Of a stretch of 64,000 nucleotides of DNA, positions 18,454 through 52,504 are shown in pieces. The DNA lies in IMG/VR virus record IMGVR_UViG_3300037307_000289; one strand, 5' to 3'. The position numbers were made by a program, and so were the translations under genes. The notes beneath the pieces were generated by a model. It searched no databases and had not been told where the DNA came from. It worked only from the letters and a program-made list of their open reading frames with translations. Positions within the stretch are counted from its first letter, which is position 1. Each line of letters begins with the position of its first letter. This stretch comes from a virus.

Positions 18454-18465
18454 TTTTAGTTCCTC

Positions 18466-24857: not shown

Positions 24858-26144
24858 TTATTTTACTTTTACCCAATGTCTACCATTAACAGCAACTTGA
24901 TTATTTGGACCCCAAAATTCAGCTGTCTCGGGTTTCTTATAAACTCCTACAATTCGTTCAGGGTATAGAGCTTTTTCTTGATCAGTCATTTTAACTAAGC
25001 TACCATCTGCATCGTTGGTCAATACATCACCAGAAACACATGATGTTGCATCATTAACATAAGCTAAAACCCAACCGCAAACTGCAATAGAGACTTGGGT
25101 TTTATTAGAGTCTTGACCAACACCATAACCAAATGTGTCAGAAGCTATTCCAATAACTGATTTTTGACATCTTTCACTACAAATGTAAGCTCCCTGAAGT
25201 GTATCATAATAACATTTTCCCGCGATAAATTCTGGATCAGCTAAATCTTGAAAATCAGCTATGTCGTTCCATATTGCATTGTAAACTCTAGTTGCATAGA
25301 AGTAACCATCATAATTTAGTCTAGAAGTATTTGTTGGGTCAGTAGATCCTGAATAAAGATATCCAGCAGCTTTATATTCATTATTAATATTTAATGAAGC
25401 ATAACATATAATTGTATCATCAGGATTAATTCTTAATCTTTCATTAGAAACCCCGGAAGCATCGTTAGTCCAAAATCTAATTCTACCAGGTGTTATTCCA
25501 GTACTTACTGTTCCTACCACTTCAGCTAAAATTCTTGCTGCTTGGCTATTGTATGTAGAACCATCATCACAATTCCATACAATACTTCCAATATTATCTG
25601 AATTTGTTAAAGCAGAAAAGCTTTCTGGCGCTGTACTTCTACTTTTTAAGAATCTAAAATATGATTCATTGCCGTCATTACTAAATCTGCCTAGTAACAT
25701 ACTGCTAGCAGAATATGTAGTCCCTAACACCTGAAATATGTAATTGGATCCACCTATTATTAAACCTTCGTCAATATTATAATTAGTTAATCTTCCTAGA
25801 GGAGTCATTTTCCATCTAATAGCATTATCTGTTTTAAATTCAATTTTTCCGCCGGTTACATCTATTACTTCTATGCTTGAATCTCCTTGATATATTTTAT
25901 TTGTTGAAAAGTCACCTATACTAGTATCGACATAACTCTTAACTGCTTTTTCAGTTGGTAATGCAGTATCTGAATTTCCTGCTAAAGTAGTATCAGTAGA
26001 AAATTCATTTATATTTGTTAATGTAGCGTCTAATTGTAAAGAATTAAATAAACCTTTTCTAGTAGCGTCCAAGACCGTGGATGATCCATGAACGATTGTT
26101 TGAGAAGAAGTTAGAACGAGATTTCCGTTTCTAAACTTTGCCAT
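24858..26144 (-). CDS. tail-fiber-like protein (428 aa) carrying one copy of the shared fiber module
   Basis: INEFSTDTTLAGNSDTALPTEKAVKSYVDTSI..KIYQGDSSIEVIDVTG. A GGAGGAAT RBS precedes the ATG. Confidence 0.6.
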   Translation of the reverse strand: MAKFRNGNLVLTSSQTIVHGSSTVLDATRKGLFNSLQLDATLTNINEFSTDTTLAGNSDTALPTEKAVKSYVDTSIGDFSTNKIYQGDSSIEVIDVTGGKIEFKTDNAIRWKMTPLGRLTNYNIDEGLIIGGSNYIFQVLGTTYSASSMLLGRFSNDGNESYFRFLKSRSTAPESFSALTNSDNIGSIVWNCDDGSTYNSQAARILAEVVGTVSTGITPGRIRFWTNDASGVSNERLRINPDDTIICYASLNINNEYKAAGYLYSGSTDPTNTSRLNYDGYFYATRVYNAIWNDIADFQDLADPEFIAGKCYYDTLQGAYICSERCQKSVIGIASDTFGYGVGQDSNKTQVSIAVCGWVLAYVNDATSCVSGDVLTNDADGSLVKMTDQEKALYPERIVGVYKKPETAEFWGPNNQVAVNGRHWVKVK

Positions 26145-26233
26145 GATGGGATTCCTCCGTCAACCTGACCACCTATCTATTGGGAGATAGGACGAGGTGA
26201 AAATATTTATTATTTGTTCTAAAAAATATAATG

Positions 26234-26462
26234 TTATGGCGTTGGAATTGGTAAGTCCAACATTCTTTCAGCAGCAGATTTAATCTTTGCATCTAATACT
26301 ACTTGTTCAACATTAACAGGAATATGTGTAGTGTTTGGATCAGATTTCATTCTTGCTATTTCCATTAAGTGCTTCGGAGTTAGATGCCATAAGATTTTCG
26401 CCATCTTTTACTATAACTTCCGAGGCCTCTAAATAAAGATTGCCATCTTTAATATATGCCAT
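26234..26462 (-). CDS. two overlapping mini-ORFs (40 aa MAYIKDGNLYLEASEV.. and 38 aa MKSDPNTTHIPVNVEQ..), possibly one frameshifted small gene
   Basis: Manual translation. ATG/TGA overlap ATGAAATCTGA. Below the ORF-track size cutoff. Confidence 0.2.
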
Positions 26463-26464
26463 AG

Positions 26465-26839
26465 TTAAATCCCCGCTTTAATTATTACTTGAGGCTTAGT
26501 TGGCCACACTGGTTTTTCTGGGTCAGTTGTATTCTTAGGTAAATCTCTCAATGCTTTTCTGTACATTGTTATATCAATTTGTTCTTGTTCGTTATATCTT
26601 GAAAAGACATCTGGAAGTACCATAAAATCAGTTCTATTTAATATTACATCTCTTTCCAATCTTAATTTTTCATATGCTTTGTCTTTTAGTTCTTGTTCAG
26701 TGAATTCTGGATCAGGAACGTTTCCATTTGATAACCATTCTTTGTATGCAATCCAATCATAATTTGCATCATCATTTGGAATAAAACATGTAGTTTCAGT
26801 ATTCTGAACTCCAGATGAAGTTATTTTATATTTTGCCAT
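26465..26839 (-). CDS. tail fiber assembly (Tfa-like) chaperone (124 aa)
   Basis: C-terminal MYRKALRDLPKNTTDPEKPVWPTKP matches the Tfa motif W..YR..L..VD.......WP..P (lambda Tfa sequence recalled from memory). Sits directly downstream of a fiber gene. Confidence 0.5.
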   Translation of the reverse strand: MAKYKITSSGVQNTETTCFIPNDDANYDWIAYKEWLSNGNVPDPEFTEQELKDKAYEKLRLERDVILNRTDFMVLPDVFSRYNEQEQIDITMYRKALRDLPKNTTDPEKPVWPTKPQVIIKAGI

Positions 26840-26850
26840 TTTTAAACTCC

Positions 26851-27918
26851 TTATGAAATCTCACATGATGCAGTCCAGTTACATACCATACTCAAGGTAG
26901 CTGCTACATTTACTGTTCCATACCAATAGAATCCTGTTGTACTAACAGTTGGTGTTCCAGCATTATAATCTGTATTATTTGTCCAACTACGAACTTTTCC
27001 TGCTGCACCAGTATCAGTAGAATATATAGTAACTGTGGGGGTATAACATTTTTCAACTGCAAATTTAACGTCTGCTCCACCTGTTCCTATTGTTGAAGCT
27101 CCTCCAACACTAAGATATTCTAAAGCACAACCATTTGATGTTATAGTACCTGGTGCTGTAAACATATTATAACTTTTTTCGTAATATCGTTTACACAAGT
27201 TCCCTTCTTTATTTAAAGTTCTTAATTCAAACGGGGTTGGTTGTGAACCAACTTCTAATTGAACACCTATCATATAAAATGCATTATTTATTGCTGACAA
27301 TAGATTTGCTTGATTTGGTCCATAATAATAATTACCTGAAAGCCAAGTATTAAATGTAGAAGTTAGTGCGTTACCCGGAGCTACATCCCAGCATATATTT
27401 ACACCACGATCATTAGTTGACCCAAATGTTACACCAGATGAAGGAAATGTTATTGGAATTACAACATAAGTCCATACAGAATTAGGCATTGTATAAGGAA
27501 CAACATACGAATAGTTACTACTTGTCCCTCTAAATGCAACATAATAAGTTCCGGGATTATTAGTCCATGCCCAAAAACTTAAAACACAACTTTTTCCTTT
27601 TATATAATTAAAGTCATATCCTTCAACAGAATATAATATTGCTACCCATTGAGCTGTGCCTGTAGCAGAGCAATAAACTTGTAATGGAGAATGAATAAAT
27701 GGGGCATCTGCTGGTGGTGTACCTGTTTGTCTATATCCAACTGTTCCAGTCAAAGACCCAGTTTCTAAACTGAATCTATCAGGCAAGAAGTTTGATGTAG
27801 TTCCAGTTATTCCAGAAAGTGTAGTTCCTCTTTGCCATATTTGCATCGCGCCGTTTATAATTAGGTTTCTTCTATAAGGATTTTGTAAAACAGTATTTTG
27901 TATTTTTGTTAAAGACAT
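26851..27918 (-). CDS. tail-fiber tip / receptor-binding paralog 1 (355 aa)
   Basis: Family blocks: MSLTKIQN..NLIINGAMQIWQRGT, GVQLEVGS.PT.FE and L.LCKRYYEKSY. Confidence 0.6.
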   Translation of the reverse strand: MSLTKIQNTVLQNPYRRNLIINGAMQIWQRGTTLSGITGTTSNFLPDRFSLETGSLTGTVGYRQTGTPPADAPFIHSPLQVYCSATGTAQWVAILYSVEGYDFNYIKGKSCVLSFWAWTNNPGTYYVAFRGTSSNYSYVVPYTMPNSVWTYVVIPITFPSSGVTFGSTNDRGVNICWDVAPGNALTSTFNTWLSGNYYYGPNQANLLSAINNAFYMIGVQLEVGSQPTPFELRTLNKEGNLCKRYYEKSYNMFTAPGTITSNGCALEYLSVGGASTIGTGGADVKFAVEKCYTPTVTIYSTDTGAAGKVRSWTNNTDYNAGTPTVSTTGFYWYGTVNVAATLSMVCNWTASCEIS

Positions 27919-27920
27919 AT

Positions 27921-29003
27921 TTATGCCTCTCCAAGTTCACATCTTGCAGTCCATTGAGTACCAAAACTATGTCCAGCTATAGCTGTATGAGGAGCTGCCC
28001 AATAAAACCCTTTAGTATTAGGATTAGAAGATGTTACTGTATGGTCTGTTGAGTTACTCCATAAATATGCTTTACCAGATGTTCCTGTAGCAGGGGAATA
28101 ATATGTAATTCCTGGTGTTGCTCTTTTTTCTACTCTGAAATTTTGATAAGATCCAAATGCTGCTACACTTGATGCTGCATCTACTCCTAAATAATCCCAT
28201 ATCATTCCAGGAACTTCATTAGAGGCACCTGGTATTGCTCCTAACTGATAGCTTTTTTCATAATACCTCTGACACAATCTTAATTCTTCTTCTTGACTTT
28301 TAAATTCAAAATCTGTAGCTTTATCTCCTATTTCTAATTGAACTCCTGTTAAATAATAACCAGCACCATTAGTAGCTGCTGCATTTACAATATTTGATGG
28401 AGCTGAAACATTGCCTGTAGTCCATTGATTTAAATTGCTTGTATAATATGTAGACCCACAAGCTAAAATCCAGTAAATAACTAACCCAACTCCATTAGTT
28501 GTATCAAATGTACCACCAGGAGAATTAAATATTATAGGTATTTCTACTTTTGTCCATGTTCCAGAAGGTAAAAGGTATGGAGCAACATAACTATAAGTTG
28601 ACATATTATCTTTAAAAACTACTGCATAAGTACCAGATATAGTAGTCCAACACCAAAAACTTAGTACACATTGCTGATTTTTTAAATAGTTATAATCATA
28701 TCCTTCAACATAATATCCTATTAAAATCCATTGCCCTGCCCCAACAGATGAATCAGCAGTTGGAAAAAGACAAGCCAATGGAGTAGTAAATCCTGTTGGA
28801 GGAGTTCCTGACTTATTGTATGTAATTACTGCATCAGTATTTTCACTAATAAAAAATCTATCTGCCAAATATTTAGTTCCAGAATTTCCTGTTATTCCTG
28901 TTAATGAAGTTCCACGCTGCCAAATTTTCATATCTCCATTAATAATGAAGTTCTTTTTTGAAGCATACTGAATTAATTTATTATTAATTTTAGTTAAACT
29001 CAT
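27921..29003 (-). CDS. tail-fiber tip paralog 2 (about 360 aa). The start is placed at the internal MSLTKINN; the track ORF extends to 29090.
   Basis: The N-terminus MSLTKINNKLIQ..NFIINGDMKIWQRGTS aligns with the other paralog starts. The 29-aa upstream extension overlaps paralog 3. Confidence 0.6.
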   Translation of the reverse strand: MSLTKINNKLIQYASKKNFIINGDMKIWQRGTSLTGITGNSGTKYLADRFFISENTDAVITYNKSGTPPTGFTTPLACLFPTADSSVGAGQWILIGYYVEGYDYNYLKNQQCVLSFWCWTTISGTYAVVFKDNMSTYSYVAPYLLPSGTWTKVEIPIIFNSPGGTFDTTNGVGLVIYWILACGSTYYTSNLNQWTTGNVSAPSNIVNAAATNGAGYYLTGVQLEIGDKATDFEFKSQEEELRLCQRYYEKSYQLGAIPGASNEVPGMIWDYLGVDAASSVAAFGSYQNFRVEKRATPGITYYSPATGTSGKAYLWSNSTDHTVTSSNPNTKGFYWAAPHTAIAGHSFGTQWTARCELGEA

Positions 29004-30088
29004 CAGTATCCTCCAATCTCTGCATTTGCAACCCACTGAACTGCGCAACTTCTTGTTGCTGTAGCTGTATAAGCACTTGCTGAATACCAATAAAAACCAC
29101 TAGGAATAGGAACTACAGTTGCTGAATATGAAGATCCTATCCCAAAATTATGATATGTGCCAGATGCCCCAGTATGGGGAGAATAAACTGTTACAGTTGG
29201 AGTTGCTCTTTTTTCAGTGTTAAATCTAACATTTTGGCCAGCATAACTTGTGGTACCACCAGTTAAAACATGGTATCTCCAACTCATTCCTCCATATAAA
29301 GGATATGTTCCCGGAACAGTTTCTAATGGATAACTTTTTTCATAATATCTTTGGCATAAAGAAATTTCTTCCGCTTTACTTCTAAACTCATAATCTGTTG
29401 CTGAATCTCCAACTTCTAATTGAACTCCAGTTATATAAAAATCATTTCCTATTGTATCAGCAAAATTAACTTGATTAGGAGGGCAAGTTTTATTTCCAGC
29501 TATCCAAACATTTGGATTACCACCTAAAAGATTTGATCCTCCTGCTAAAATTATAGCAAAGATACATCCAATTCCATTTCCTGAATCAAATGTACCACCA
29601 GGTGAATTAAATGTTACTGGAGCTATAACTTTAGTCCATGTAGATGATGGTAATGTAAACGGAATCATATAAGTATATGTATATGCGTTATCTCTAAATG
29701 AAGCTCCATAAGATCCAGGTTTATTAGTCCATGCCCAAAAACTTAAAGTACATCTTTTTCCTTTTATAAAGTTAAAATCATATCCTTCAATATAGTATAT
29801 TATTGCAACCCATTGATCTGAAGTTAAAGATGTATCAGCAGTAGCTATATAAAATTGATTTGAATATAAAAACCCTTGTCCAGTAGGAACTCCTGTACTT
29901 CTACCGCTAGTTAATGAACCATCAAACGCAGTAGAAGAAATCCATCTATCAGCAATAATATAAGCTGTGGATCCAGTTTGCCCTGTATAACTAGTTCTTC
30001 TTTGATATATTTCCATATTTCCATTAATGAAAATATTCTTTCGATATGGAGATTGTATAAGATTTTTATGAACAGTAGTTAAAGACAT
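29003..30088 (-). CDS. tail-fiber tip paralog 3 (361 aa)
   Basis: MSLTTVHKNLIQ..IFINGNMEIYQRRTS; GVQLEVGDSATDYEF; LCQRYYEKSY. Confidence 0.6.
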   Translation of the reverse strand: MSLTTVHKNLIQSPYRKNIFINGNMEIYQRRTSYTGQTGSTAYIIADRWISSTAFDGSLTSGRSTGVPTGQGFLYSNQFYIATADTSLTSDQWVAIIYYIEGYDFNFIKGKRCTLSFWAWTNKPGSYGASFRDNAYTYTYMIPFTLPSSTWTKVIAPVTFNSPGGTFDSGNGIGCIFAIILAGGSNLLGGNPNVWIAGNKTCPPNQVNFADTIGNDFYITGVQLEVGDSATDYEFRSKAEEISLCQRYYEKSYPLETVPGTYPLYGGMSWRYHVLTGGTTSYAGQNVRFNTEKRATPTVTVYSPHTGASGTYHNFGIGSSYSATVVPIPSGFYWYSASAYTATATRSCAVQWVANAEIGGY

Positions 30089-30090
30089 TT

Positions 30091-31647: not shown

Positions 31648-31696
31648 TAAATCAGTCCTCCTTTATAGTTCTGCACTAAATAAAACATAACCACCA

Positions 31697-32728: not shown

Positions 32729-32743
32729 ACTTTTATCTCCAAA

Positions 32744-33835: not shown

Positions 33836-33847
33836 TACTAATCCTCT

Positions 33848-34999: not shown

Positions 35000-35014
35000 A
35001 ATAAATCTCCCTAA

Positions 35015-38000
35015 TTATGATATAACTCTCCATCCTGTTGTTGAATCAACATATACAAGAGTCACATCTGCACGATCTTCATCTAATACATAATCATCTT
35101 CAATCTCTTCAATTTTATTACCATTTCTTCCCAGTGTACAATTATTTGTACCAAAGTTAACTGATGCATCAACAATCTTAATTTCATCACCAGTAGTTGG
35201 AGAACCAGGTAGAGTAATAGTAATTGCCCCACCAGATGTTTTAACTAATAGTTTGTCTCCATCCTGCGCTGAATAGTTCGAAGTTATTGTTGACCATCTT
35301 GTTACTGCAGCAGGTTGTGTAGAATCAGGATTATATAGAACTCCCCAATTTCTAAAGTCATCAGCTCCGCCTGCTGTCACTCTTAATCTTAAATCTAAAC
35401 CAGTATTTGTAAAGTAATGAATTTCATTGATAGTTACAGTTTCCCAATTAGTTCCATCAGCAGTCATTTCAAATGTATGACCAGCTGTTGTATCGCTATA
35501 ATCTACATATAGAATAGCTTGTGTAACAGCTGCCATTCCTGCATTTGAGTCATATAGATCATTTGATTCTAATATTTCTCCAACTGACGATGCTGAATAC
35601 ATATGGTTTGCAACTGAATGAGTCATAGTTGTTTCACCAGTATTAACATCATCAGTAGTTCTAAATGTATCAAAACCAGCGTTTAAATAAATTGAATTGT
35701 CTAATAATCTTTCATAGAATTGTGCCTCTAGATTTGTATCAATATAAATCTTTGTTGCACGTTCAGTTGGAACGGCTGCGTTTGAATTATCAGCTAATGC
35801 AGAATCGCTAGAAAATTCATTAACTCTTTGCCCTGATGCTAAAGCAAGACCATCACTATTTATAGTTGCTTCAACTGATCCATCAATTGTGCATGTTACT
35901 GTACCATTTGAACCTGTATCAGTAACTTCAACAGTTGAATCTCCTGCTATAATTAGATTTTGTGGACCTCCAACTGTTGAACCATCTACATTAACCCAAG
36001 TAGCTGTAGTTGCATCATATTGAATAATATCTAGGTTTTGAACTCCAGTAATATTAACATCTCCCAAATCTGCTAATAGATCAGGAGAAGTTCCTGAAGT
36101 ACCGCTTGAACCTGAACTACCTGATGTACCTGATGAACCACTAGTACCAGATGTTCCGCTAGTTCCTGAACTACCCGAAGTTCCACTTGAACCTGAAGTT
36201 CCAGATGAACCACTTGTACCTGCATCACCAGTTGGCCCCTGTTCTCCTGAAGTTCCAGATGAACCACTAGTTCCTGAACTACCAGATGTACCTGATGAAC
36301 CACTTGTACCTGAACTACCAGATGTACCTGAGCTTCCTGATGTTCCACTAGTACCTGAACTACCTGACGTACCAGATGTTCCACTTGACCCTGAACTTCC
36401 AGATGAACCAGATGTGCCTGAGCTACCAGAAGTTCCTGATGAACCAGATGTACCAGATGTGCCTGAGCTACCTGATGTGCCTGATGTGCCTGAGCTACCT
36501 GATGTACCTGATGAACCACTAGTACCTGAGCTACCTGATGTTCCTGAGCTACCTGATGTACCAGATGTTCCAGCTAATGATGATGAAGCAGATACTCTAC
36601 TTGTTACTAGACCTCTCCAGTCTATGTATGAATTTTCAGAATCTCCAGATGCTGAAACCATTTTAACATTACTATAAGTATCCCATCCATCATTTGTTTG
36701 ATAAATAAATGTTGCAATTGGTGTAAATTCTGCAGATGGTAAACCCAATGTGTAAATACTATCAATTTCTTCAATAGCTGCATCTCTTGCTGCTGTTCTT
36801 GTTGAATATTCATTTTGTCCCTGAATAGCAATAAAAGGCATACTAGGATCAGGAATAGCAAAGACGTGTGCTAGTACAAAATAGTTATTTGCTGAAACTT
36901 GAGTTTGACTTCCTGAACTACTTGTAATTTGGTTATAATTAACTCTTTGTCCAGTAGTTCCATAAGTCATTAAGAATGATTCTGGTCTCTTTCTCCAATC
37001 TGATCCATCTAAATAAAATAGTGGAATTTCTGCTGCATCAAATGGAGAGCTAACCCCTTGTTGTGGTATAGTATGCAAAATATCTTCATCAAAGAACGAA
37101 CCTTCCTGAATAATGAATTGATTTTGTCTATCTGAAGTAGGTGGGTCATCATTATTACTATCCTCAGTTGCAAGATCTAATACGGCCATACCCGAACCAT
37201 ATCTAGATCCAAATGTTGAGTGTAAATAATAATGTGTCGCCCAGTCCATGGTTACACCATGGCGTTCGTCAGCTTTAATTATCCATATATTACTTGAACT
37301 ATCCCAATAACCATTGGCAACAAATGCATAATTTTTTAATAAGTTTAAACTAAACGTATTAACAGCATTAATATTTTCATCATTATCAAGATAGAAGAAC
37401 CACATTCCTTCAGTTGGAGGACTTGAGAATGTATAAGTTTTAGTTCCTACTTCGTGTTCAACACCTTTAATTAGATATGTAAATGTTGATCCTGTTGGTT
37501 GAATTGACAAACTTTGTGAAGTAGCATCATCCCAAACCAAAGTAGATTCTGTTCTATCAAAGATACCAGTTGGTTCAAATGTGAATGTTCCAAGATAGTT
37601 CATAACTTCTTGAAGAGTTGTACTTGTTCCTGAACTACCTGAAGTACCAGATGATCCGCTTGTACCACTTGAGCCTGAAGTTCCTGAACTACCCGAGGTT
37701 CCGCTTGATCCACTAGTTCCTGATGAACCACTAGTTCCAGATGAACCTGAACTGCCAGATGTACCTGATGTACCACTTGATCCACTAGTTCCTGATGAAC
37801 CACTTGTTCCTGAACTACCTGATGTTCCAGATGATCCTGATGTGCCGCTAGAACCTGATGTACCTGATGTACCACTAGTTCCTGATGTACCACTAGAACC
37901 TGATGATCCTGAGGAACCACTAGAACCTGATGAACCGCTAGTACCTGATGAACCGCTAGTACCTGAACTACCTGAAGTTCCAGATGTTCCGCTTGATCCT

Positions 38001-39262
38001 GATGAACCAGATGTACCAGATGAACCGGAACTGCCTGACGTACCAGATGTTCCTGAACTTCCTGATGTTCCTGAACTGCCCGATGTTCCAGAAGTTCCAT
38101 TGCTACCTGATCTTGCAAAGTCGAAATAGAAATATTGATCGTCTGTTGCATTATCACCAGCAACAACATTAGTTACAGAAACTTTCCAATAACCAGATTC
38201 ATCACTAACTGCTGTTACTGTAAATATACCATATATACTTGTTGAGATATTTCTGCGAATTGTTAATGTACCCTTATTAGGATTTAAAGGGTCATCCCAA
38301 CTTGAAATCCAATTTGATATATCATCATCACCTTGTGTGAGATCGTCTATATAAAGTTCTGTAACAGATCCCCATGAGGCATTATTCATCCTGAAATAAC
38401 CATCTCCAGGATCAGCCTCTGCGGTTACATTATCAAATCTATAAAACGCACCAGCTGCAATTGGATTACCTGATGTACCAGAACTTCCACTTGAACCACT
38501 TGAGCCTGAGGTTCCTGAGCTTCCACTTGTACCTGATGTTCCAGAAGTACCACTTATTCCATTAGTTCCAGAAGTACCACTAGTTCCAGAAGTACCTGAT
38601 GCTTCAGCATTAGCTTCAGCTATAATCCATTCAAATTTATAATTTTGTGAGTCGGTTTCTCCTGTTAGTAGAACAGTAAAACTAGTTTCGTCTCTAGCTA
38701 TAACTGTCCATGCATAAATTGAAGGAGTAGCGTCAACACTATTAGTTATACTACCTGAAACTTTATATGTTGAAGTTCCTTGACTTTCAGAAAAGATTAC
38801 TATAAATGATGATGAATCATCCGGAATACTAAATATTCCAGCTGTAACCCCTTCTCCTGATGTACCACTAGTTCCGCTAGAACCTGAACTACCTGATGTT
38901 CCACTTGATCCACTTGTTCCACTTGATCCACTTGTTCCAGATGACCCTACATGATTATCAACGTAAAATTTAACTGCTTTTTCAGTTGGAACAGCTAAAT
39001 CAGAATCTCCTGATAATGTTCCATCTGTAGAAAATTCATTAACACCTGTACCATTTTTTAAACTAGTAACCCCTGTATCTGTAATTGAAAATACGGAAAC
39101 ATTTGATGTATCGGTAACCTTGAATCCATCTTCATCTTGCATTTGTAGTGAATCAAGAATAATCTTCTTATCATCACCAACATTCCAGTCACCGGTTAGG
39201 GTATTGGTTCCATCTCGTTTTACAACAAGATCTTTTCGTATCCATTTAGGATCAAATGTCAT
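35015..39262 (-). CDS. giant tail fiber with collagen-like (G-T/S-S)n triplet tracts (1415 aa)
   Basis: Three long [13 protein letters not shown].. tracts. Two copies of the shared module ([29 protein letters not shown]; [29 protein letters not shown]). Confidence 0.75.
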
Positions 39263-39282
39263 ATCAGGTAGCCTCTTAGGGA

Positions 39283-39342
39283 ATTAAAAAAAAAATAGTT
39301 GAAAAACTGTGGAGAAGCTCCAAACTTCGAAGCTTCTCCACA
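39283..39342 (-). terminator. rho-independent terminator on the minus strand: perfect 12-bp stem (tgtggagaagct/agcttctccaca), 11-nt loop, then a T-rich tract
   Basis: In minus orientation the hairpin is followed by GTTTTTCAACTATTTTTTTTTTT. Lies just past the stop of the 2337-aa fiber gene. Confidence 0.65.
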
Positions 39343-39357
39343 ATTCGTTTGATAAGA

Positions 39358-42300
39358 TTAAATGATAAAGAAGTTGGTTCCGTCACAAACAAATGTATAT
39401 GCTTGATAGCCAGTATCAATAATAATTTGTGACTGACCATCAATCATACCAGGTGTGGTTGTGATATAAACCTTATTACCATCAGTTGATTTCTTCTTGA
39501 TAATAATCTTACCATCTGTTGATTCCAATAGTTGAATAGTAACATCTCCAGCAGTTGTGTCTGCTAGAATTACATCTCCAGTTGAAGCTGTTGTATCTGC
39601 ATAAACGTTTCTTACATTGATTAGATCTAGTTCTTGTCTTAGATCGTTAATTTCAGTATCAACATAAGTTTTAACTGCTTGTTCAGTTGGAACTGCTGTA
39701 TCTGAATTACCCACTAGTGTTCCATCAATTGAAAATTCAACAATTGAAGCTCCAGTTTGTAATGTTAGACCAGAAGTATTAACTGTTGCATATGCTGTAT
39801 TATTTGCCTCAAATATAATACTTCCAGTTTGATCAATAGAAATATTAGTATCTGCTGCAGTTCCAATTGTAATCAAGTTTACTCCACCATCAAATACTAG
39901 AGTTGAACCTGCGTACAATTTAGCTGTATCCGCTGTTTGATCTAGATCCAATCTTGAATCTCCAGAAACACCAAATGTTTGACTTGTTGTTGCACCGTCA
40001 ATAATTTGAGTTGTTCCTGCATATAGATCTGCTAGATCATTTGATGCATCCAAGAATAGTCTTGAATCTGCTGCTAAACCAATTGTTTGTGCTGTATCTG
40101 TAAAGTTACCAACTGAAATATTACCTGAATTTAATGAGATCTGATTTGATCCTTGTAATAAGGTAATAAATGTATCATCGCCTTTACCAAGTGTCTGACT
40201 TGTATCACCTAAAAGCAACAATTGAGTGGTACCAGCATAACATGCAATTGAATTTCCAGCTTGATCTACAACAATTCTTGAATCTGTTGAAATACCTAAT
40301 GTTTGTGCTGTTGTTCCACCAGTAAATATATCTGATGCTCCAGCAGTCATTGTTATAGTATTTGCTCCTTGTGCTAATGTAATTAAAGTATCTCCAGATA
40401 CACCAACTACTTGTGTTGCAACTGCTCCTGCAAATACTCTTGTTGCACCTGCATAAAGATCAGCAGTATTTGTTGATTGATCTAGAACTAGACTTGAATC
40501 TCCAGCAACACCAAAGATTTGTGTGGTTGTTGCTCCATCAATAATTTGAGTTGTTCCTGCATAAAGATCAGCTGTTCCTGTTGCAAGTTCTAGTCTTGAA
40601 TCGCTTGACAAACCAACTCTTTGTGATGAACCCAAGCTTAGTACATCAGCAGGAGTTGCTCCACCATAAACAGTTACTAAATTATTAGTAACTTCTAATC
40701 TTGATTCTGTTGCTTGACCAATTGTTTGTGTTGTAGCATTAAATGTTGAAACAGCAACATTATCAGCAGTAACAGTAATAACTCCAGCATCTGTACCATC
40801 ATCAATAACTTCAACCTTTGAGTCATCTTGCCAAATTAGATTTGCTTGACCACCAATTTGTGAATCAACATATGTCTTAACTGCTTTTTCAGTTGGTACT
40901 GCATCATCTGAATCACCAGCTAAAGTAACATCTGTTGAAAATTCATTAACTGATGTTCCTAGTTGAAGTGTTAGACCATCACTATCAAATTGACCTCTTT
41001 GTGCTAAACCAGTTACGAATATAATATTATTTGATGTTTGGTCAACTTTAATATATTCGTCACCAAGAGTTTCAAATCTTCTATTATCATCATTCCACCA
41101 AGCAACTTTATAACCATCTGGATCATCTTCTCTGGTTGCAACAGCTTGGGTTTGGCCAGTTTCGCCAACTCTAAATGTATCTGTTGATTCTTGAAAAATA
41201 AATTGATAGATTGGGGATGACCCACGATCAACTTCAAGACCTGCGATTCCTCTTGTTACACCTGGTCCTGGATCTCCATAGTTTACTGTGATGATATTAT
41301 CTTCAGTTTTTACTTCTTCATTAAATACAATAAAAGCGGTTCCATCAATTGATAGATTACCTCTAACTGTTAGATCACCTTCAACACTTACTCCAGTATT
41401 TTCAACTTGCATTTGAAGAGTATTACCAGTGTAAGCGTTAATTTGATCGTCAGTTTGATTAATAGTAAAGTATGTATCGCCTGAAACACCAAGTGTTAAT
41501 ACGTTTGTTGTTCCATTAACAACCTTAACAGTTCCTGCATATAAATCAATTGTATCATTTGTTTGATCTGTTTCTAATCTTGAATCTCCAGCAACACCAA
41601 ATACTTGTAGATTCAATTCGCCTCTAACAATTCTATTTACTCCTGCATATAGATCAGCATAATCATTTGCTTGATCAAAGAATAGATTTGAATCACCAGC
41701 AACACCAAAGATTTGTGTGGTTGTTGCTCCATCAATAATTTGAGTTGTTCCTGCATATAGATCAGCTAGATCGTTTGTTGTATCAAGAACTAGTCTTGAA
41801 TCTGCTGCTTGACCAATTCTCAATGTTGTTAATGACAATTGAGCGACATTTATATTACCAGCAGAGAAACTAATAATATCTGCAACATTATTAATATTCA
41901 TTCTGGTATCTGCAGTCATACCAACTGTAACTGCTGTTAATGAACCACTAAAAACATTAGTTGTTCCTGCATATAGATCAACTGTAGGAGCTGGGGAAAC
42001 AACTAATTCAACTCTTGAACTTGCAGATTGTCCAATTCTTTGTGTATTCAATGTTAATGATTGAACATCTGTATTATCAGCTTTGGTTACAATTGAACCA
42101 GTACCTGCATCAGTTACTCTAACTTCTGAATCACCTTCCCAAATTCTATTTGCTTGACCACCAATTTGTGAATCAACATAAGCTTTAACTGCTGCTTGTG
42201 TTGGTACAATATTATCTGATGGTGTAACATCTCCTAGTGTATCATCAGTTGAAAATTCATTGATCTTTGCACCAGTTGCTAATTGAACTCCAGTTGAATC

Positions 42301-45300
42301 AAATAAAGCAATCTGATCTGTTGAATCAACATCATGTATATGAATACCAGCAGTATTACCATATAAAAATGCTGTTCCAGGAGCCGCATTAGGATTTCCA
42401 ATTCCGAATGTATTTGATGTTGCATAGAATACTATATCAATTGAATTAATAAATAATGATGCTGATGTTGAATCTAACGCTATTTTTACTGTGTCTGGTG
42501 AATCGCCTGCATAGATATCTACAGTTTGATCTTGTGTATGAATATCAATTCCTGCATTTGTACCATTATCACCAAACCAAACTCTATTTGATGTAACACT
42601 ACCTTTTTGTGAAGGAGTATTAAAGAATAGTTCAGTATCATCTAGATCTGCTTTAAAGTTAACACTAGTTATATCACCAAGTGTTACACCATTGTCTGTA
42701 AATAAACCAACTTCAAGACCATCAGCTTTAATAGAAACAGCGCCATCTGTTCCTGTATCTGTTACAACTACTTCGGAGTTTAATTGCCAAATTCTATTTG
42801 GTGCCATTCCAGAAATTTGTGTGTCAACATAATCCTTAACTGCATGTTCTGTTACTAAAGCTGTTGTTGAATCTCCTGTCAATGATGGGTCATTTGTAAA
42901 CTCATTGATGATTGCACCACCAAGAGTTCCACCTTGGGCCATTTGAAGTCCATTAGAAGTCAATTGCATTCCATAACCAGAACCAATATGGAAATCAATA
43001 ACATCTGTTAGACCTGATAGATAAATTCTTGTATCTGAATCTCTACCAATTACTTGAACACCATCAGTCCAATACCCTTGAATAGTGCTATTGACCCAAA
43101 CATTTAATGCACCATCGCCTTGGTTTACTTCTAGTACTACATTTCCTGATACACCAATACTTTGATCAAAACCAAATCTTGCAACAGAAGCAGGTGTTGC
43201 CCCAGCGTATAACTCAATTAAGTCATCACCAACTAACAATCTTGATTCTGCTGCTTTACCAATTCTTTGAGTTGATGAAAGAACATCAAAATATGCAACT
43301 TGAACTCCATCAGTTACGATTTGAACATAACCAGTTGCAGTTCCATCGTCAACAACTTCAACCTTAGAATCATCAGCCCAAATCTTATCAGGATTTAGAT
43401 TTGCAATTTGAGTATCAACATATACCTTAACTGCATGTTCTGTTGGTACTGATGCACTTGAATCATCTACTAGTGTAGTATCATTTGAAATATCATTTAC
43501 TGGTACGCCATTATCTAGTGTTAATGAACCACCTGCAACTGTAACGCCAGCATTAAATGTTGTTAGTCCTGTAAATGGTCTTAGACCAGTTAGTCTAGCG
43601 TATTGTAGATGGTCATCATCTGCTAGTCCTGATAATGAACCGTGATCTGTTACTTGACCAGGTACTGAAGAAATTTTTGCATATCTCCAGTCAGCATAAT
43701 CTCCGCCTTGTGCTGGTCTAGCAGATGTTTTTACAGAGTTTGTAAATGAGTTACTTGTTTGGTACAGAACAGAACCAATTGCTACAAATTCTGCAAATGG
43801 AACTCCTTGTAGAACCATTTCATTGATTTGATTGGCTTGTTCTTGTGCTGTTGTTAAATCAGAATATTGTGTTTGACCAAGAATACCAATAATTTTACGA
43901 CTATTATCATAGTCATTAGTAGCAAAATAGTGAACATAAACATAATAATTATCTGTTGCTTCTGTTAGCTGCCATGATCCACCAGATAGTTCATTCCATG
44001 CCATACGGCCTGAACCAGTGGTAATCAATGGGAAGTTATTAGCAGTACTACTTCTCCAATTTCCTGCTCCTGCTCCAGATCTGTAGAAAATAGGAATATT
44101 TGCAGGCGCAGATTTAGTAGGAATACTTGTAGTAATATCTTCATCGAAAATAGTACCTGCTGAAACAGATAGTTGTGCTTCAACATCTAGACTTCCAGTT
44201 CCATCAGTTACAAGATCACCAATACCTAAACCATCAAGATAAACTGTTCCTCTTGAGTTATGTAGATTCCAGTGTGTGGCGCCATCCATGATAATTCCAT
44301 GTCTTTCATCACCAACATAGATGGCCTTATTATTTGTGGCATCCCAATAAATAACTGAAACGTATGGAACAGTAAAAATATAGTCATTAGACCATGTAGT
44401 AGAATGAGTCAATATTCCATTGTCGTTAAAATAAATATAATGTAGTCCTTCTACATCAGTAATTTCAACTGAAGTAGAAGAGTCTATAACATATCTTTGA
44501 CCTCTAATAAAAATATCAAATGAATCACCAACTGGAACAATACTGAAAACTCTACTTGTACTATCAAATGAAATTGTAGAATCATTTCTTTGTTCAATAC
44601 CATTTGGGTCTCTCATTGAGTAATGAATATCATCAATATATGATCTTACTGCTTTTTCAGAAGCTACAACTGTATCTGATCCTACTCCGCCATTGTATCC
44701 ACCAAGTGTATTATCAGTTGAAAACTCATTGATTGCTGAACCTGCAGATAAAGTAAGCCCATTAGAATCAAATTGACCAACTGTGACGTTAGCAGACTTA
44801 AATGTAATCAAATTGGTTGATTGGTCAATAGTAATAATTGTATCTGCGCTAACACCAAGTGATTGTGTAAGAAGTCCTAAATTTAATACTTCGGTGGTTG
44901 CTGATTTAACAGATACTACATTAGTATTTGTATCTAAATCAATTCTAGTATCGCCGCTTGGGCCAATTCTTACAATCTTTGTAGTTCCAAGATCTTCAAA
45001 TCTACCCATTTCTGTATCATTAATTTGAATTGTCACATACTGAGTAGCTTCTGATGTTGAGTCTTGAACTTCTACTTTTGAATTTCCTTCATCAATAATA
45101 TATCTTGGTACACCGCCGATTTGGTTATCAACATAATCTTTAACTGCATAAGAAGTTGGTAATGTTGTTGCACTTGAACTTAATGTTGAGTTTGAAATAG
45201 CATTAACTGAAACGCCTGATGCTAAAGAGAAGTCCTCTAATACTTGTAGATCTTTAGCAAATGCTGCTTTTGAACCTGCCCAAATTGTTCTCTTAACATC

Positions 45301-46371
45301 AGTATCAACACCCAAGAACAAGAACTCGCCGCTACTAAATACACCAGCTGTTAATGATGCTAGGGTAGTCCAGGTTCCCCCAAATTGAGTTTCAGCTTTA
45401 ACACTTACATTTAGATTATCTCTAATTTGGAAGTATGCTGCTGTTCCTGCACTATTTCTATAAGCAAAACCATATGTGTTGTTTGGTAGTGCAAATAAAG
45501 ACCCGCCAGTCTTTGTGGTGGTTGCAACAATTGTAGAAGCAACTATTTCATTACCATCAGGATCAATGATACCAACCCCAAGATCATTGCTATCATTATA
45601 TGCATAAACAACATGACCATTTGATAGTAAAGTAGTTGGGTAATCAACTAAAGTTCCAAGTACTCCAAGAGATGTTGCTCCTAATACTTGGGTTCCTTGA
45701 CGATCATATATATAATACCAAGCAGAAGTTGAGTTGGTAATAAACACCATAAAATTACCATCTTGTAAACCAACAACTTCGTTTCTATCAACATTTGCAG
45801 AACTGATAATAACTTCAGTTCTTACTACATCTCCATCTTGGTCAAAAATTTGGAAAGCATTTTTTGACGAACCATTGGAATAACCAATAACAAAATTACC
45901 ATCTGCTAGAGGAGTTACAGAAAATTCTGTAAACCCTCCTGTACCTGCAACTACAGTAGAAACTGTAACAACATTCAATCTTTCATCATAAATGATGAAT
46001 CTAATTCTTGGTGTTGCAGCTTCATAGAAAGCAATAACAACATTGCCGTTAGCAAGAGTTGCTGCCTTTAGATAGTTTCCTGTTGCTGCTGCTCCGATTG
46101 TTACAGCGGAAACAACGACAGATCCTGATGGATTAACAACTGCTACTTTGTAATCAGTATCTGCATATGCAACAAGCATATTACCGCTTCTTAATTTAGC
46201 AGTTGCTAGAGCTTGATCTCCATTTACAGCTAGATTTCCTAAGGCAACGCTTTGTGCCCAGTCTGCTACATCAAGACCAGCACTTCCAGCCAGTGAAACT
46301 AATGAGTTTACATCTCCACCATTCACTGAAAATAGTGGAATTTGGTTTAACCATCTTGGGTCGAAAGTCAT
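39358..46371 (-). CDS. giant tail fiber protein (2337 aa) with six copies of the about 60-aa fiber module and internal LYAG-type beta repeats
   Basis: Modules such as [54 protein letters not shown] recur 6 times. DLYAGTTQIIDGATTTQIFGVAGDS repeats 3 times. Confidence 0.8.
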   Translation of the reverse strand: MTFDPRWLNQIPLFSVNGGDVNSLVSLAGSAGLDVADWAQSVALGNLAVNGDQALATAKLRSGNMLVAYADTDYKVAVVNPSGSVVVSAVTIGAAATGNYLKAATLANGNVVIAFYEAATPRIRFIIYDERLNVVTVSTVVAGTGGFTEFSVTPLADGNFVIGYSNGSSKNAFQIFDQDGDVVRTEVIISSANVDRNEVVGLQDGNFMVFITNSTSAWYYIYDRQGTQVLGATSLGVLGTLVDYPTTLLSNGHVVYAYNDSNDLGVGIIDPDGNEIVASTIVATTTKTGGSLFALPNNTYGFAYRNSAGTAAYFQIRDNLNVSVKAETQFGGTWTTLASLTAGVFSSGEFLFLGVDTDVKRTIWAGSKAAFAKDLQVLEDFSLASGVSVNAISNSTLSSSATTLPTSYAVKDYVDNQIGGVPRYIIDEGNSKVEVQDSTSEATQYVTIQINDTEMGRFEDLGTTKIVRIGPSGDTRIDLDTNTNVVSVKSATTEVLNLGLLTQSLGVSADTIITIDQSTNLITFKSANVTVGQFDSNGLTLSAGSAINEFSTDNTLGGYNGGVGSDTVVASEKAVRSYIDDIHYSMRDPNGIEQRNDSTISFDSTSRVFSIVPVGDSFDIFIRGQRYVIDSSTSVEITDVEGLHYIYFNDNGILTHSTTWSNDYIFTVPYVSVIYWDATNNKAIYVGDERHGIIMDGATHWNLHNSRGTVYLDGLGIGDLVTDGTGSLDVEAQLSVSAGTIFDEDITTSIPTKSAPANIPIFYRSGAGAGNWRSSTANNFPLITTGSGRMAWNELSGGSWQLTEATDNYYVYVHYFATNDYDNSRKIIGILGQTQYSDLTTAQEQANQINEMVLQGVPFAEFVAIGSVLYQTSNSFTNSVKTSARPAQGGDYADWRYAKISSVPGQVTDHGSLSGLADDDHLQYARLTGLRPFTGLTTFNAGVTVAGGSLTLDNGVPVNDISNDTTLVDDSSASVPTEHAVKVYVDTQIANLNPDKIWADDSKVEVVDDGTATGYVQIVTDGVQVAYFDVLSSTQRIGKAAESRLLVGDDLIELYAGATPASVARFGFDQSIGVSGNVVLEVNQGDGALNVWVNSTIQGYWTDGVQVIGRDSDTRIYLSGLTDVIDFHIGSGYGMQLTSNGLQMAQGGTLGGAIINEFTNDPSLTGDSTTALVTEHAVKDYVDTQISGMAPNRIWQLNSEVVVTDTGTDGAVSIKADGLEVGLFTDNGVTLGDITSVNFKADLDDTELFFNTPSQKGSVTSNRVWFGDNGTNAGIDIHTQDQTVDIYAGDSPDTVKIALDSTSASLFINSIDIVFYATSNTFGIGNPNAAPGTAFLYGNTAGIHIHDVDSTDQIALFDSTGVQLATGAKINEFSTDDTLGDVTPSDNIVPTQAAVKAYVDSQIGGQANRIWEGDSEVRVTDAGTGSIVTKADNTDVQSLTLNTQRIGQSASSRVELVVSPAPTVDLYAGTTNVFSGSLTAVTVGMTADTRMNINNVADIISFSAGNINVAQLSLTTLRIGQAADSRLVLDTTNDLADLYAGTTQIIDGATTTQIFGVAGDSNLFFDQANDYADLYAGVNRIVRGELNLQVFGVAGDSRLETDQTNDTIDLYAGTVKVVNGTTNVLTLGVSGDTYFTINQTDDQINAYTGNTLQMQVENTGVSVEGDLTVRGNLSIDGTAFIVFNEEVKTEDNIITVNYGDPGPGVTRGIAGLEVDRGSSPIYQFIFQESTDTFRVGETGQTQAVATREDDPDGYKVAWWNDDNRRFETLGDEYIKVDQTSNNIIFVTGLAQRGQFDSDGLTLQLGTSVNEFSTDVTLAGDSDDAVPTEKAVKTYVDSQIGGQANLIWQDDSKVEVIDDGTDAGVITVTADNVAVSTFNATTQTIGQATESRLEVTNNLVTVYGGATPADVLSLGSSQRVGLSSDSRLELATGTADLYAGTTQIIDGATTTQIFGVAGDSSLVLDQSTNTADLYAGATRVFAGAVATQVVGVSGDTLITLAQGANTITMTAGASDIFTGGTTAQTLGISTDSRIVVDQAGNSIACYAGTTQLLLLGDTSQTLGKGDDTFITLLQGSNQISLNSGNISVGNFTDTAQTIGLAADSRLFLDASNDLADLYAGTTQIIDGATTSQTFGVSGDSRLDLDQTADTAKLYAGSTLVFDGGVNLITIGTAADTNISIDQTGSIIFEANNTAYATVNTSGLTLQTGASIVEFSIDGTLVGNSDTAVPTEQAVKTYVDTEINDLRQELDLINVRNVYADTTASTGDVILADTTAGDVTIQLLESTDGKIIIKKKSTDGNKVYITTTPGMIDGQSQIIIDTGYQAYTFVCDGTNFFII

Positions 46372-46459
46372 AATAAATTTCCTCCACTTAATATTGACGG
46401 GTAATCAAACTTAATCATGTATTTGTTCCAAAAATATAGTAAGATTAAAACCGTTATAA

Positions 46460-48472
46460 TTAAACTATAAATAGATTTGCACCATTACTAATAATAGTTA
46501 CTGACTTCAAATATGTTCCGATAACATACAAAGATTGAAAATCTATGCTACCAAAAGTAGGTATGATTGTAACTTTATGTTGACTTGCGTTCTTTACTAT
46601 ATATTTACCATCAATTTTTGGTATCATGTGTAGAACTATATCTCCAGTTGAGTCTACAATTATCGCTTCTCCTGAAACTGCAGTAGAATCTTGTGTTACA
46701 GACTTAATAGTCATTATATCAAGATGTTCAATAATATTATCTATATATGTCTTTACAGCTCGTTCAGTTGGAATCGAAGTATCAGAGTTACTAACTAATG
46801 TCCCATCAGTTGAAAACTTATTGATTCTTGCGCCATACTCTAGTATAAAACCATCTTTATCAAAGTTTGCTATTTCTTTGCTTCCTTCAATTAAAGACTG
46901 ATTTGAATATGTTACTTTAATTTCTATTTGTCTTGCTCTAACAAAACTGGTACTATCTGTAGTAACTACTTTAACTCTAGTTGAAAGATTTTTAACATCA
47001 TCCCAAGTCCAATCTAACGGCGCTTGTGAATCATGAGTAATATCATAATATTGTGACCAACCTGCAGTTCCATAAAAATCAATTGCAGTTCCAACAGTGC
47101 TTCCAGAAAACAATGGGTATAAATACATTTCAGAAACACTAGGCCCATGTTTTGTTGCATAAATTCTAAGTTCAACTTTTAATATTGTACCAACAGCAGT
47201 TGAATCTACAGAATTATTATGATTATTATTTTGAATGTAAGTTCCTGGTGTAGAACTTGTAAAAGCATAAGTTAATAGATTTCCATCCACCATATTTTGT
47301 GGATTAGTCCAATTTGAAGTAGAATATCCATTATATCTAAATGTTGAAACTAAAGTTCCAGTTGAGTCTCCTAAAACTAGATCTCTAGTTTTAATAACTA
47401 CACCACTAAACCCTGTATTATCAAATGTTTCTACACTTGTCAAACCTTTATAAATTTTATTTACACTTACAGAAATAGAAGCAATTGCATTATCTACATA
47501 TGTTTTGACTGCTTTTTCAGTAGGAAGTACAAGATCTGAATTTCCAGATAATGTTACATCTGTAGAAATTTCATTAATATAATTTACTAAAGTAAGGCCT
47601 GATACTAAAGTTAAGCCAGTACTATCTAGAACTGCTTCCGAATTTACACCAACGAAAAAATTCATTGATGAAGAAGATAATGACAGCCTTGTACTAGTGC
47701 TCGAACCTAATCTTTGTGTAGTATCGGTTAGTAATAAAGTTGAATTGTTTGTAAATGCTTCTATACTTGAGGTTGAATCTATTAAAAAATAGTGATTTGA
47801 TTCTGGCTTACCAAGTGTTAAAAGATTTCCTGATATATATAATCTTTGTTCTCCATCAAATCCCATTCTCATAGATGGATAACCAATTTCAAATTGGTCT
47901 AGTGGAGTTGGGCCATAAATGTTTAGTTTATCATCAGTTATGAGTAATCTAGATTTATCATCTAAATCTTTACCAATTCTAATAGATGTGGCTAATGCAT
48001 CAAAATATGCAACTTGCTGATTGTCTGCTACTATTTGAATATAACCAGCATCTGTGCTATCATCAACTACTTCTACTTTAGAATCATTTTGCCAAATTTT
48101 ATTTGGGTTAAGTCCTGAAATTTTAGCATCAATATAAGCAGTTGTATCTATTAATATTTGTGCATCTTGATTGTCAATATATGTTTTAACCGCTTTTTCA
48201 GTAGGAACATGTGCATCACTATTTCCAGATAATGCTTGGTCTATTGTAAATTCTGTAATTGTTGCCCCGGCAGATAGAGTAATATCATCAGCTGTTAAAT
48301 CTGTAAAAAATGCACTATTTGCATCATTTATACCAATAGAAGCTGGTGACGCAAAGAGATTTTCAAATGAGATTTTCTTAGTCTCAGACGCACTAGCATC
48401 AACTATTGGAAACACATCAGATAAATCTGCAGTTACCAATGCGTTAAGTTGTGTTATCTTTTTATCAGCCAT
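46460..48472 (-). CDS. tail fiber protein (670 aa) with three module copies
   Basis: [64 protein letters not shown] and INKFSTDGTLVSNSDTSIPTERAVKTYIDNII. Confidence 0.7.
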   Translation of the reverse strand: MADKKITQLNALVTADLSDVFPIVDASASETKKISFENLFASPASIGINDANSAFFTDLTADDITLSAGATITEFTIDQALSGNSDAHVPTEKAVKTYIDNQDAQILIDTTAYIDAKISGLNPNKIWQNDSKVEVVDDSTDAGYIQIVADNQQVAYFDALATSIRIGKDLDDKSRLLITDDKLNIYGPTPLDQFEIGYPSMRMGFDGEQRLYISGNLLTLGKPESNHYFLIDSTSSIEAFTNNSTLLLTDTTQRLGSSTSTRLSLSSSSMNFFVGVNSEAVLDSTGLTLVSGLTLVNYINEISTDVTLSGNSDLVLPTEKAVKTYVDNAIASISVSVNKIYKGLTSVETFDNTGFSGVVIKTRDLVLGDSTGTLVSTFRYNGYSTSNWTNPQNMVDGNLLTYAFTSSTPGTYIQNNNHNNSVDSTAVGTILKVELRIYATKHGPSVSEMYLYPLFSGSTVGTAIDFYGTAGWSQYYDITHDSQAPLDWTWDDVKNLSTRVKVVTTDSTSFVRARQIEIKVTYSNQSLIEGSKEIANFDKDGFILEYGARINKFSTDGTLVSNSDTSIPTERAVKTYIDNIIEHLDIMTIKSVTQDSTAVSGEAIIVDSTGDIVLHMIPKIDGKYIVKNASQHKVTIIPTFGSIDFQSLYVIGTYLKSVTIISNGANLFIV

Positions 48473-52081: not shown

Positions 52082-52504
52082 ATGGAGAGGTATATCGTGA
52101 CTCAAATTCTTGATATTAAAGCAGATAAAAATTTTCCTTATCATTATATTGTATCAGTTGGTTGTTATTCAGGAATTAATGAACCAAGAACTGGTCAATT
52201 TTATTTAAAGTATAAAGTTGTTAGTTTTACGCACGATGATATTGAAAAAGTAAGAAGCGCAATTATGCTTGGAAGTGATCAATTATTTAAAACTAATATG
52301 AAAGATGCTATGAATTTATGCGAATGTAATGAATTAGTTTCAACATTATCATCATTAAAATTTGCTTGTAGAGCAAATATTATAAGTATGCATCATTTTT
52401 CAAGTGAATATGAGATTGATGAAGATTGGTTTAAAAATATTGTAGAAAATGCACACAGAATAGAATCTTATAGAAAACTTCTACAGGAGTCGCTGATGAA
52501 ATGA
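52082..52504 (+). CDS. hypothetical protein (140 aa), first gene of the rightward block
   Basis: ORF with an ATGA overlap onto the next gene. Confidence 0.45.
   Translation: MERYIVTQILDIKADKNFPYHYIVSVGCYSGINEPRTGQFYLKYKVVSFTHDDIEKVRSAIMLGSDQLFKTNMKDAMNLCECNELVSTLSSLKFACRANIISMHHFSSEYEIDEDWFKNIVENAHRIESYRKLLQESLMK

Follow-up and report, generated by a model that had tools for sequence, protein, structure and literature searches.

Why should one short protein module recur throughout a set of neighboring phage fiber genes? The question is raised by a 64,000-nucleotide stretch of viral DNA (IMG/VR record IMGVR_UViG_3300037307_000289; here referred to as the window), in which an initial annotation, made without database searches, had described a ~60-aa unit in four fiber proteins and had read it as a shared structural joint or docking element and as a substrate for recombination between fiber genes. 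The sharing itself is borne out, as four fiber genes, all located on the minus strand between positions 24858 and 48472, carry the module at the places described. We favor, with a probability of roughly 0.6, the reading that the module is a connector node on the trimer axis between segments of trimeric tail fibers and that it belongs to the "phage tail fibre repeat" kind as a branch that has diverged and has no name.

Judged by sequence comparison, the four carrier proteins are tail fibers. They comprise a 428-aa protein (24858..26144; an open reading frame matching the PHROG families phrog_18345, phrog_9851, and phrog_9942), a collagen-like 1415-aa protein (35015..39262; Pfam Collagen, E = 5e-53, and many PHROG tail fiber families), a 2337-aa protein (39358..46371; phrog_9851 in five stretches, E = 3.4e-39), and a 670-aa protein (46460..48472; phrog_9851 in three stretches, E = 1.5e-24). 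All four match PHROG "tail fiber protein" families, and homologues of the module are present in tail fibers of other phages that were assigned by annotation or by cryo-electron microscopy (cryo-EM). In addition, a gene for a 124-aa tail fiber assembly chaperone, which lacks the module, is located directly upstream of the 428-aa fiber gene (26465..26839, minus strand; PF16778 Phage_tail_APC; phrog_4912 at 1e-15).

When a 36-column hidden Markov model (HMM) of the module core was run with all filters off against the six-frame translation of the whole window, 13 copies were detected with per-copy E values between 2.7e-12 and 4.3e-21, while the next-best match had an E value of 0.65; the copies are therefore far beyond chance. 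The count of 12 copies given previously holds for the 428-aa (one copy), 670-aa (three copies), and 1415-aa (two copies) proteins, but the 2337-aa protein contains seven HMM domains rather than six, with the proline of the PTE motif at aa 405, 570, 976, 1173, 1390, 1826, and 2228. Copies 1 and 2 of this protein have the least canonical cores, and hence one of them may be the copy that was missed. The description as a single ~60-aa unit was likewise correct only in part. A core formed by the first ~45 aa is present in all 13 copies, and the conserved unit starts ~12 aa earlier than the motif first described, with the sequence fDSxGLtLxxG. The module is, however, composite: the second half, NxIWxxDSKVEVxDDGTxxGxVxIxxD, is present in 8 of the 13 copies and occurs once as an orphan.

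The single copy in the 428-aa protein (aa 34 to 108; 25821..26045; HMM E = 2.9e-21) consists of a core and a second half, as does the middle copy of the 670-aa protein (aa 281 to 366; 47375..47632; E = 4.7e-20). In the latter protein, the first copy (aa 59 to 152; 48017..48298; E = 4.1e-20) has a 15-aa insertion between the two halves, and the third copy (aa 536 to 582; 46727..46867; E = 4.4e-21) is reduced to the core. The 2337-aa protein begins its series with copy 1 (aa 377 to 453; 45013..45243; E = 2.7e-12), in which a divergent core, VNAISNS...LPTSYAVKDYVD, is followed by a second half, and with copy 2 (aa 533 to 584; 44620..44775; E = 2.3e-15), a core with a 5-aa insertion. Copies 3 (aa 945 to 1023; 43303..43539; E = 4.6e-18), 4 (aa 1136 to 1219; 42715..42966; E = 2.2e-18), 5 (aa 1356 to 1434; 42070..42306; E = 1.9e-17), and 6 (aa 1794 to 1872; 40756..40992; E = 4.3e-21) each have both halves, and copy 7 (aa 2196 to 2245; 39637..39786; E = 1.9e-20) is a core located ahead of a ~90-aa C-terminal tip domain. 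In the 1415-aa protein, the first core (aa 61 to 107; 38942..39082; E = 7.4e-21) runs directly into a G-x-y collagen-like repeat, and the second core (aa 1133 to 1180; 35723..35866; E = 2.2e-18) is preceded by the orphan second half (aa 1091 to 1128; 35879..35992; positions 42 to 80 of the A2 profile).

The copies lie 150 to 600 aa apart, and several occupy boundaries between unlike parts of the fiber, namely, before the collagen-like stretch of the 1415-aa protein (aa 107/108), before the tip domains of the 2337-aa and 670-aa proteins, and between two confidently predicted β-sandwich domains of the 670-aa protein. Many of the copies in the 670-aa and 2337-aa proteins are not free-standing pieces shuffled among fibers; they head homologous segments that are 180 to 310 aa long and 37 to 44% identical, of which they form the best-conserved part. 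Similarly, the last module together with the C-terminal tip domain could be aligned between the 670-aa and 2337-aa proteins and within the 2337-aa protein (36.5% identity over 208 aa). The module is also found in unrelated surroundings, beside collagen in the 1415-aa protein and, in the 428-aa protein, ahead of a C-terminal region of another kind.

The initial annotation had proposed a profile search, and this search places the module well beyond the present genome. In a set of 1.84 billion representative proteins (clusters at 50% identity), a profile built from the 13 copies matched 6,682 protein clusters at an E value of ≤1e-3, 1,907 at ≤1e-10, and 195 at ≤1e-30. Among the best 150 proteins, the median number of copies was 4, and at most 27 were counted in one protein (the search output itself gave 33 matched stretches); a second half was present in 197 of 728 instances. 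Over 819 unique instances, the near-universal part narrows to about 28 aa, in which the most conserved core residues are Y (97%), A (95%), S (91%), K (90%), and T, D, and D (87% each). By tblastn (E = 4e-8 to 8e-3), the module was found in annotated tail fibers of the cyanomyoviruses S-CAM1, S-CAM3, P-SSM2, P-SSM5, S-SSM7, and S-B05 as well as in those of the Pelagibacter phages Mosig and HTVC103P and the Puniceispirillum phage HMO-2011. In this search of cultured phages, the whole 670-aa protein gave no match at 1e-5, and the 99-aa module segment did. The proteins of P-SSM2, S-CAM1, S-CAM3, Mosig, HTVC103P, and HMO-2011, together with LME-1 orf22, P-SCSP1u gp28, and PHROG 9851, are true homologues of the core and are tail fibers by annotation or, for LME-1 and P-SCSP1u, by cryo-EM. 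P-SSM2 PSSM2_301 (1326 aa), the one of these that was inspected directly, contains a single copy close to the C terminus (aa 1236 to 1277; E = 1e-17), as do most of 80 IMG/VR loci, in contrast to the 13 copies in four genes of the window. Of these 80 loci, 74 have only one module-bearing reading frame, and single copies have a median distance of 127 aa from the C terminus. The window is thus at the high end of reuse, whereas the module itself is common. A shorter form, KSTDxTLxxxSDxKFPTEKAVKTYVD, was seen in two relatives, P0081 and P0071; the fragments concerned come from contigs of Flavobacterium-type and other bacteria that are up to 0.9 to 2.2 Mb long, and in P0081 it adjoins a different repeat, DUF5907 (PF19264). 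Since this short form is found on bacterial contigs, the module may also be present in prophages or bacterial surface proteins.

This distribution bears on one explanation for the repetition, which is that the module binds a glycan on the host surface and is repeated for avidity. Repeats along long, surface-exposed fibers would be in keeping with such a role, one relative bears the label of a trimeric autotransporter adhesin in one source, and weak, subthreshold matches to carbohydrate-binding modules are located nearby, including a CBM53 match at aa 1182 to 1211 of the 1415-aa protein, close to a module. However, the module is near-invariant whether the phage infects cyanobacteria, SAR11, SAR116, or Legionella, which is the opposite of what is seen for receptor-binding elements; conservation along the fiber is highest, not lowest, in the module; and the structure predictions described below suggest a small strand-helix unit without a pocket-forming domain. 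We therefore consider an adhesin role very improbable. The conservation across phages of unrelated hosts instead looks structural.

The position of the module within the chain speaks to a second explanation, namely, that it serves in docking or recognition and is bound by a further protein of the virion or its assembly, for example, another fiber, a small tip-like paralogue, or the chaperone. In some relatives, the module is only 6 to 15 aa from the C terminus, and it matches positions 1042 to 1086 of the 1092-position phrog_9851 profile; a terminal location of this kind would suit an end-to-end joining of fibers. In the window, three of the four proteins have a copy within the first ~150 aa, and seven tip-like paralogues and the chaperone gene are encoded between the fiber genes. 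On the other hand, all 13 copies are internal, which does not favor end-to-end docking, and a specific site is hard to square with as many as 7 copies in one chain of the window and about 30 in relatives. Docking is in our view an improbable function, though a somewhat better candidate than glycan binding.

Structure predictions lend themselves more readily to a joint. An AlphaFold2 monomer model of copy 6 of the 2337-aa protein, based on a 118-sequence alignment, has block-mean predicted local distance difference test (pLDDT) values of 79 to 95 over the first 50 residues, that is, the core, with strands predicted at residues 5 to 7, 10 to 12, 21 to 23, and 35 to 37 and a helix at residues 39 to 50 (EKAVKTYVDSQI); the second half is of low confidence when modeled in isolation. 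A full-length AlphaFold2 model of the 670-aa protein has a strand-strand-helix arrangement in all three copies, with helices at aa 92 to 102, 319 to 332, and 570 to 583 and with strands at aa 301 to 303 and 315 to 317 in the copy at aa 281 to 366 and at aa 552 to 554 and 566 to 568 in the copy at aa 536 to 582. In this model, the second halves are β-hairpins, and the third copy lies between β-sandwich domains at aa 373 to 540 and 588 to 669. Fold searches with a monomer fragment returned no PDB match, but little can be learned from this result, as the fragment comes from chains that intertwine in a trimer.

The predicted order of elements recalls a solved structure. In the crystal structure of the mixed α/β fibrous repeat of T4 gp12/gp34, a conserved glycine begins an outward strand that is followed by a variable loop, and a Ser/Thr-Pro cap precedes a central helix, three of which form a bundle on the fiber axis (Granell et al. 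2017, PMC5537660). The sequence of the module and its AlphaFold2 secondary structure show a matching succession of glycine, strand, loop with a near-invariant serine, P-T, and helix: in the module profile, G13 (84%) precedes the predicted strand, and P34 (80%) and T35 (87%), in the order P-T, precede the helix. On the basis of this resemblance to the T4 repeat, we propose that the module is a trimer-axis node. It would consist of a short β-strand/loop unit closed by a Pro-Thr-capped amphipathic helix (PTEKAVKxYVDxQI) with the A, V, Y, V, and I residues on one face. By analogy, the three helices of the assembled trimer would pack on the 3-fold axis, and this packing could re-register the three chains between segments as different as globular domains, 36-aa β-shaft repeats, a collagen-like triple helix, and the C-terminal tip. 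The copies of this branch are dispersed along the fiber and not arranged in tandem. Such a node fits the boundary positions, the extreme conservation across unrelated hosts, and the position-specific conservation in orthologues. To this extent, the earlier idea of a shared structural joint is plausible and the best supported of those put forward, as the module stands out by its conservation, the highest in fibers that otherwise diverge, is predicted to form a strand-strand-helix unit, and is located between unlike segments; from these features and the T4 analogy, we infer both the helix bundle on the trimer axis and the connector role.

How does this proposal relate to named repeat families? 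For the module, no above-threshold Pfam match was obtained with the four proteins, with isolated copies, or with ten relatives, NCBIfam gave no match, and a full-text literature search by motif strings gave no paper. The only Pfam family matched by more than one module of a diverse set of 62 sequences was PF03406 (Phage_fiber_2), always below threshold. The sole window copy to be matched was the first one of the 670-aa protein (match at aa 82 to 104), with 19.7 bits against a gathering threshold of 22 bits; none of the 13 window copies was matched when scanned as isolated segments, 2 of the 62 diverse copies were matched below threshold (best E = 0.0083), and one relative reached 19.3 bits. 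A comparison by hhalign of the window module profile with lambda-type PF03406 repeats gave a weak alignment (score of 20.9, P = 7.5e-4, probability of 25%, 29 columns of consistent register) in which INEFSTD.. of the module is paired with IVQLSSAT..SETLAATPKAVKAAYD of the lambda-type repeat. This score was reached by none of 200 column-shuffled lambda profiles (mean of 8.9, maximum of 16.2) and equals that of the T4 gp12/gp34 repeats against the same lambda-type profile (21.0). The PF03406 repeat, known as repeat 2 of lambda Stf, resembles the module in being short and in having a strand (IVQLSS versus INEFST), a loop with a conserved serine, and then a ...P.AVK... sequence that opens a helix. 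It differs in its cap, which is A-T-P-K-A-V-K instead of P-T-E-K-A-V-K, and the module has Y-V-D after AVK, an N-terminal GLxLxxG extension, and an optional β-hairpin second half. In addition, cultured examples of the module have known hosts that are mostly marine and not enteric. Taken together, the module is probably a distant relative of the "phage tail fibre repeat" kind and not a member of PF03406. A precedent for the layout of the 1415-aa protein is provided by the EPclB proteins of Escherichia coli prophages, which have a Col-Pf2-Col arrangement in which Pf2 (PF03406), flanked by collagen stalks, is seen by electron microscopy as a globular node (PMC3368898); the arrangement of modules and collagen in the 1415-aa protein is similar.

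Several observations weigh against a connector node of this ancestry. No module copy reaches the Pfam cutoff for PF03406, and lambda-type units are arranged in 42-aa tandem arrays, whereas the module copies are dispersed. A direct hhalign comparison of the module with the T4 gp12/gp34 repeats was not significant (P = 0.13 with A3 and 0.42 with A2), and the module cap is P-T and not T/S-P. Finally, within the full-length 670-aa monomer, the module has pLDDT values of only about 55 to 75. The T4 repeat further differs in its helix, which is 4 to 5 residues long compared to the 12 to 14 residues predicted for the module, and hmmsearch of the module against gp12 and gp10 gave negative scores.

With regard to solved structures, a sequence profile search of the PDB returned two chains only, the tail fibers of Legionella phage LME-1 (orf22 in 9EFK; aa 454 to 498; E = 4.7e-7) and cyanophage P-SCSP1u (gp28 in 8I4M; E = 1.1e-4), and a search with a single protein as the query gave no match. 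According to the papers on 9EFK and 8I4M, the modeled fiber is the virion-proximal part only; since the distal fiber is unmodeled in both, no coordinates of the module exist. The LME-1 fiber (density map EMD-47975) is reported to bend, running 180 Å outward and then 160 Å downward. The initial annotation had allowed that the module might turn out to be a generic, already named fiber repeat of known structure. It is indeed generic and widespread, but it is unnamed and without a known structure.

The remaining proposal was that the module is a substrate for recombination between fiber genes, kept as a stretch of homology for swapping distal segments within a genome or between coinfecting phages. 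In distal fiber genes of T-even phages, conserved motifs are said to flank variable regions. Some features of the present fibers would be expected from such a linker: the N terminus and module of the 428-aa protein are common to proteins with different C termini, and orthologues of the 2337-aa protein have five, six, or seven copies, with the full-length orthologues P0115 (2252 aa) and P0119 (1926 aa) containing six and five copies, respectively, and copy 4 of the window being absent from P0115. Furthermore, 52 of 115 internal alignment ends of the 2337-aa protein fall within a module ±10 aa, compared to 30% expected. However, alignment ends cluster at the most conserved segment in any case and are not independent of each other, and we set this excess aside as confounded on both counts. 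At the DNA level, the 17-codon core stretch is only 51 to 86% identical between copies (mean of 67%), and the longest exact run shared over extended modules has a median of 11 nucleotides and a maximum of 33 nucleotides, the latter within the 2337-aa gene. For nine of the 10 copies in the 670-aa and 2337-aa proteins, identity to the positional counterpart in a related phage (71 to 96%) exceeds that to every other copy of their own genome (45 to 64%); copy 5 of the 2337-aa protein, for instance, is 96% identical to the same-position copy in P0121. The tenth (aa 1136 to 1219 of the 2337-aa protein) is a tie, with 56% identity to the orthologous copy and 57% within the genome. There is no sign of gene conversion or concerted evolution among the copies. 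Overlapping BLAST segments with P0115 and P0119 had suggested unequal crossing-over at the modules, a reading that was rejected when identity was profiled in a sliding window: in the two copy number indels examined, the switch between paralogous segments occurs within the 36-aa shaft repeats, 40 to 100 aa downstream of the module, and module copy 3 remains orthologous over its whole length. Due to the better match to positional orthologues and the indel junctions outside the module, a role as a recombination substrate is not supported, and we regard it as unlikely.

A bolder version of the connector can be envisaged, in which the module is an autonomous and portable device for trimer registration with which aquatic phages would join unrelated shaft types (β-repeat shafts, collagen triple helices, globular lectin-like domains, and tip domains) into very long fibers and which would constitute a distinct fold family so far absent from solved structures, possibly serving also as a hinge or as the seat of branch points for the small tip paralogues. 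We put this forward as a tentative possibility only. A general role in nucleating collagen, which the 1415-aa protein had brought to mind, was rejected; among the top relatives, G-x-y repeats come after the module in just 2 of 628 instances, and collagen nucleation is hence not the general role of the module.

Besides the module, the fiber genes have a number of other features. In the 1415-aa protein, there are five long stretches of the collagen-like G-S/T-S type, which are encoded by 9-nucleotide periodic DNA repeats and are broken by globular domains. The two largest fibers have one ~310-aa globular domain in common (aa 588 to 896 of the 2337-aa protein, 43684-44610; aa 563 to 883 of the 1415-aa protein, 36614-37576) with 32.5% identity (E = 1.8e-41), and both of these proteins have the N-terminal motif MTFDP[KR]W. 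In the 2337-aa protein, aa ~1435 to 1700 and 1873 to 2190 (39800-42070, minus strand) are made up of 36-aa (108-nucleotide) shaft repeats of the type ..DLYAGTTQIIDGATTTQIFGVAGDSRL.LDQ.., which build superrepeats headed by the module (aa 1350 to 1660 versus 1791 to 2057; 44% identity). About seven ~45-aa blade-like repeats (LANGNVVIAF..., LADGNFVIGY..., and LQDGNFMVFI...) were recognized by eye in aa 1 to 376 of the same protein (45244-46371, minus strand), which suggests an N-terminal β-propeller, although no Pfam family was matched there. Between the chaperone gene and the gene for the 1415-aa protein lies a tandem array of seven paralogous ~360-aa genes (26851-34999, minus strand; phrog_4492 matches) with a period of ~1080 nucleotides. 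Their products, of 355, 389, 361, 518, 343, 363, and 383 aa, all align with the C-terminal ~310 positions of the phrog_4492 "tail fiber protein" profile, and the 518-aa paralogue has a weak CBM_4_9 match. Located among the large fiber genes, this array could encode alternative receptor-binding tips.

The G+C content of the window is 27 to 42%. Auxiliary genes at 8746 to 24812 are unusual and are located upstream of the fiber genes, on the strand that also carries these. They encode an RtcB-type RNA ligase (8746-9936, minus strand; phrog_1075 at 3e-105), three radical S-adenosylmethionine (SAM)-like proteins (13412-14740, 16226-17584, and 22626-23807, all minus strand), and a major facilitator superfamily (MFS) transporter-like protein (23808-24812, minus strand; MFS_1 at 3e-10). 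A radical-SAM-like gene, the sole nonfiber gene searched against cultured phages, gave only ~25% identity. Both the GC skew and the gene orientation switch near 52.2 kb, and the plus-strand block that follows (52501-62670) includes genes for an SPFH/Band 7 protein (52952-54778) and for a protein with a kinase-like N-terminal region (60413-62089, plus strand; Pkinase, 32.8 bits against a cutoff of 31.7).

In summary, the module is real, widespread, and uncurated, although a conserved structural repeat in phage fibers is not surprising biology. If it is a self-registering trimer node, it would be a candidate building block for chimeric fibers and a target for focused cryo-EM of LME-1, P-SCSP1u, or P-SSM2. 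Since its ~45-aa signature marks tail fibers in thousands of uncultured, mostly aquatic phages and has no curated Pfam or NCBIfam model, receptor-binding proteins in marine viromes would be better annotated with such a model at hand.

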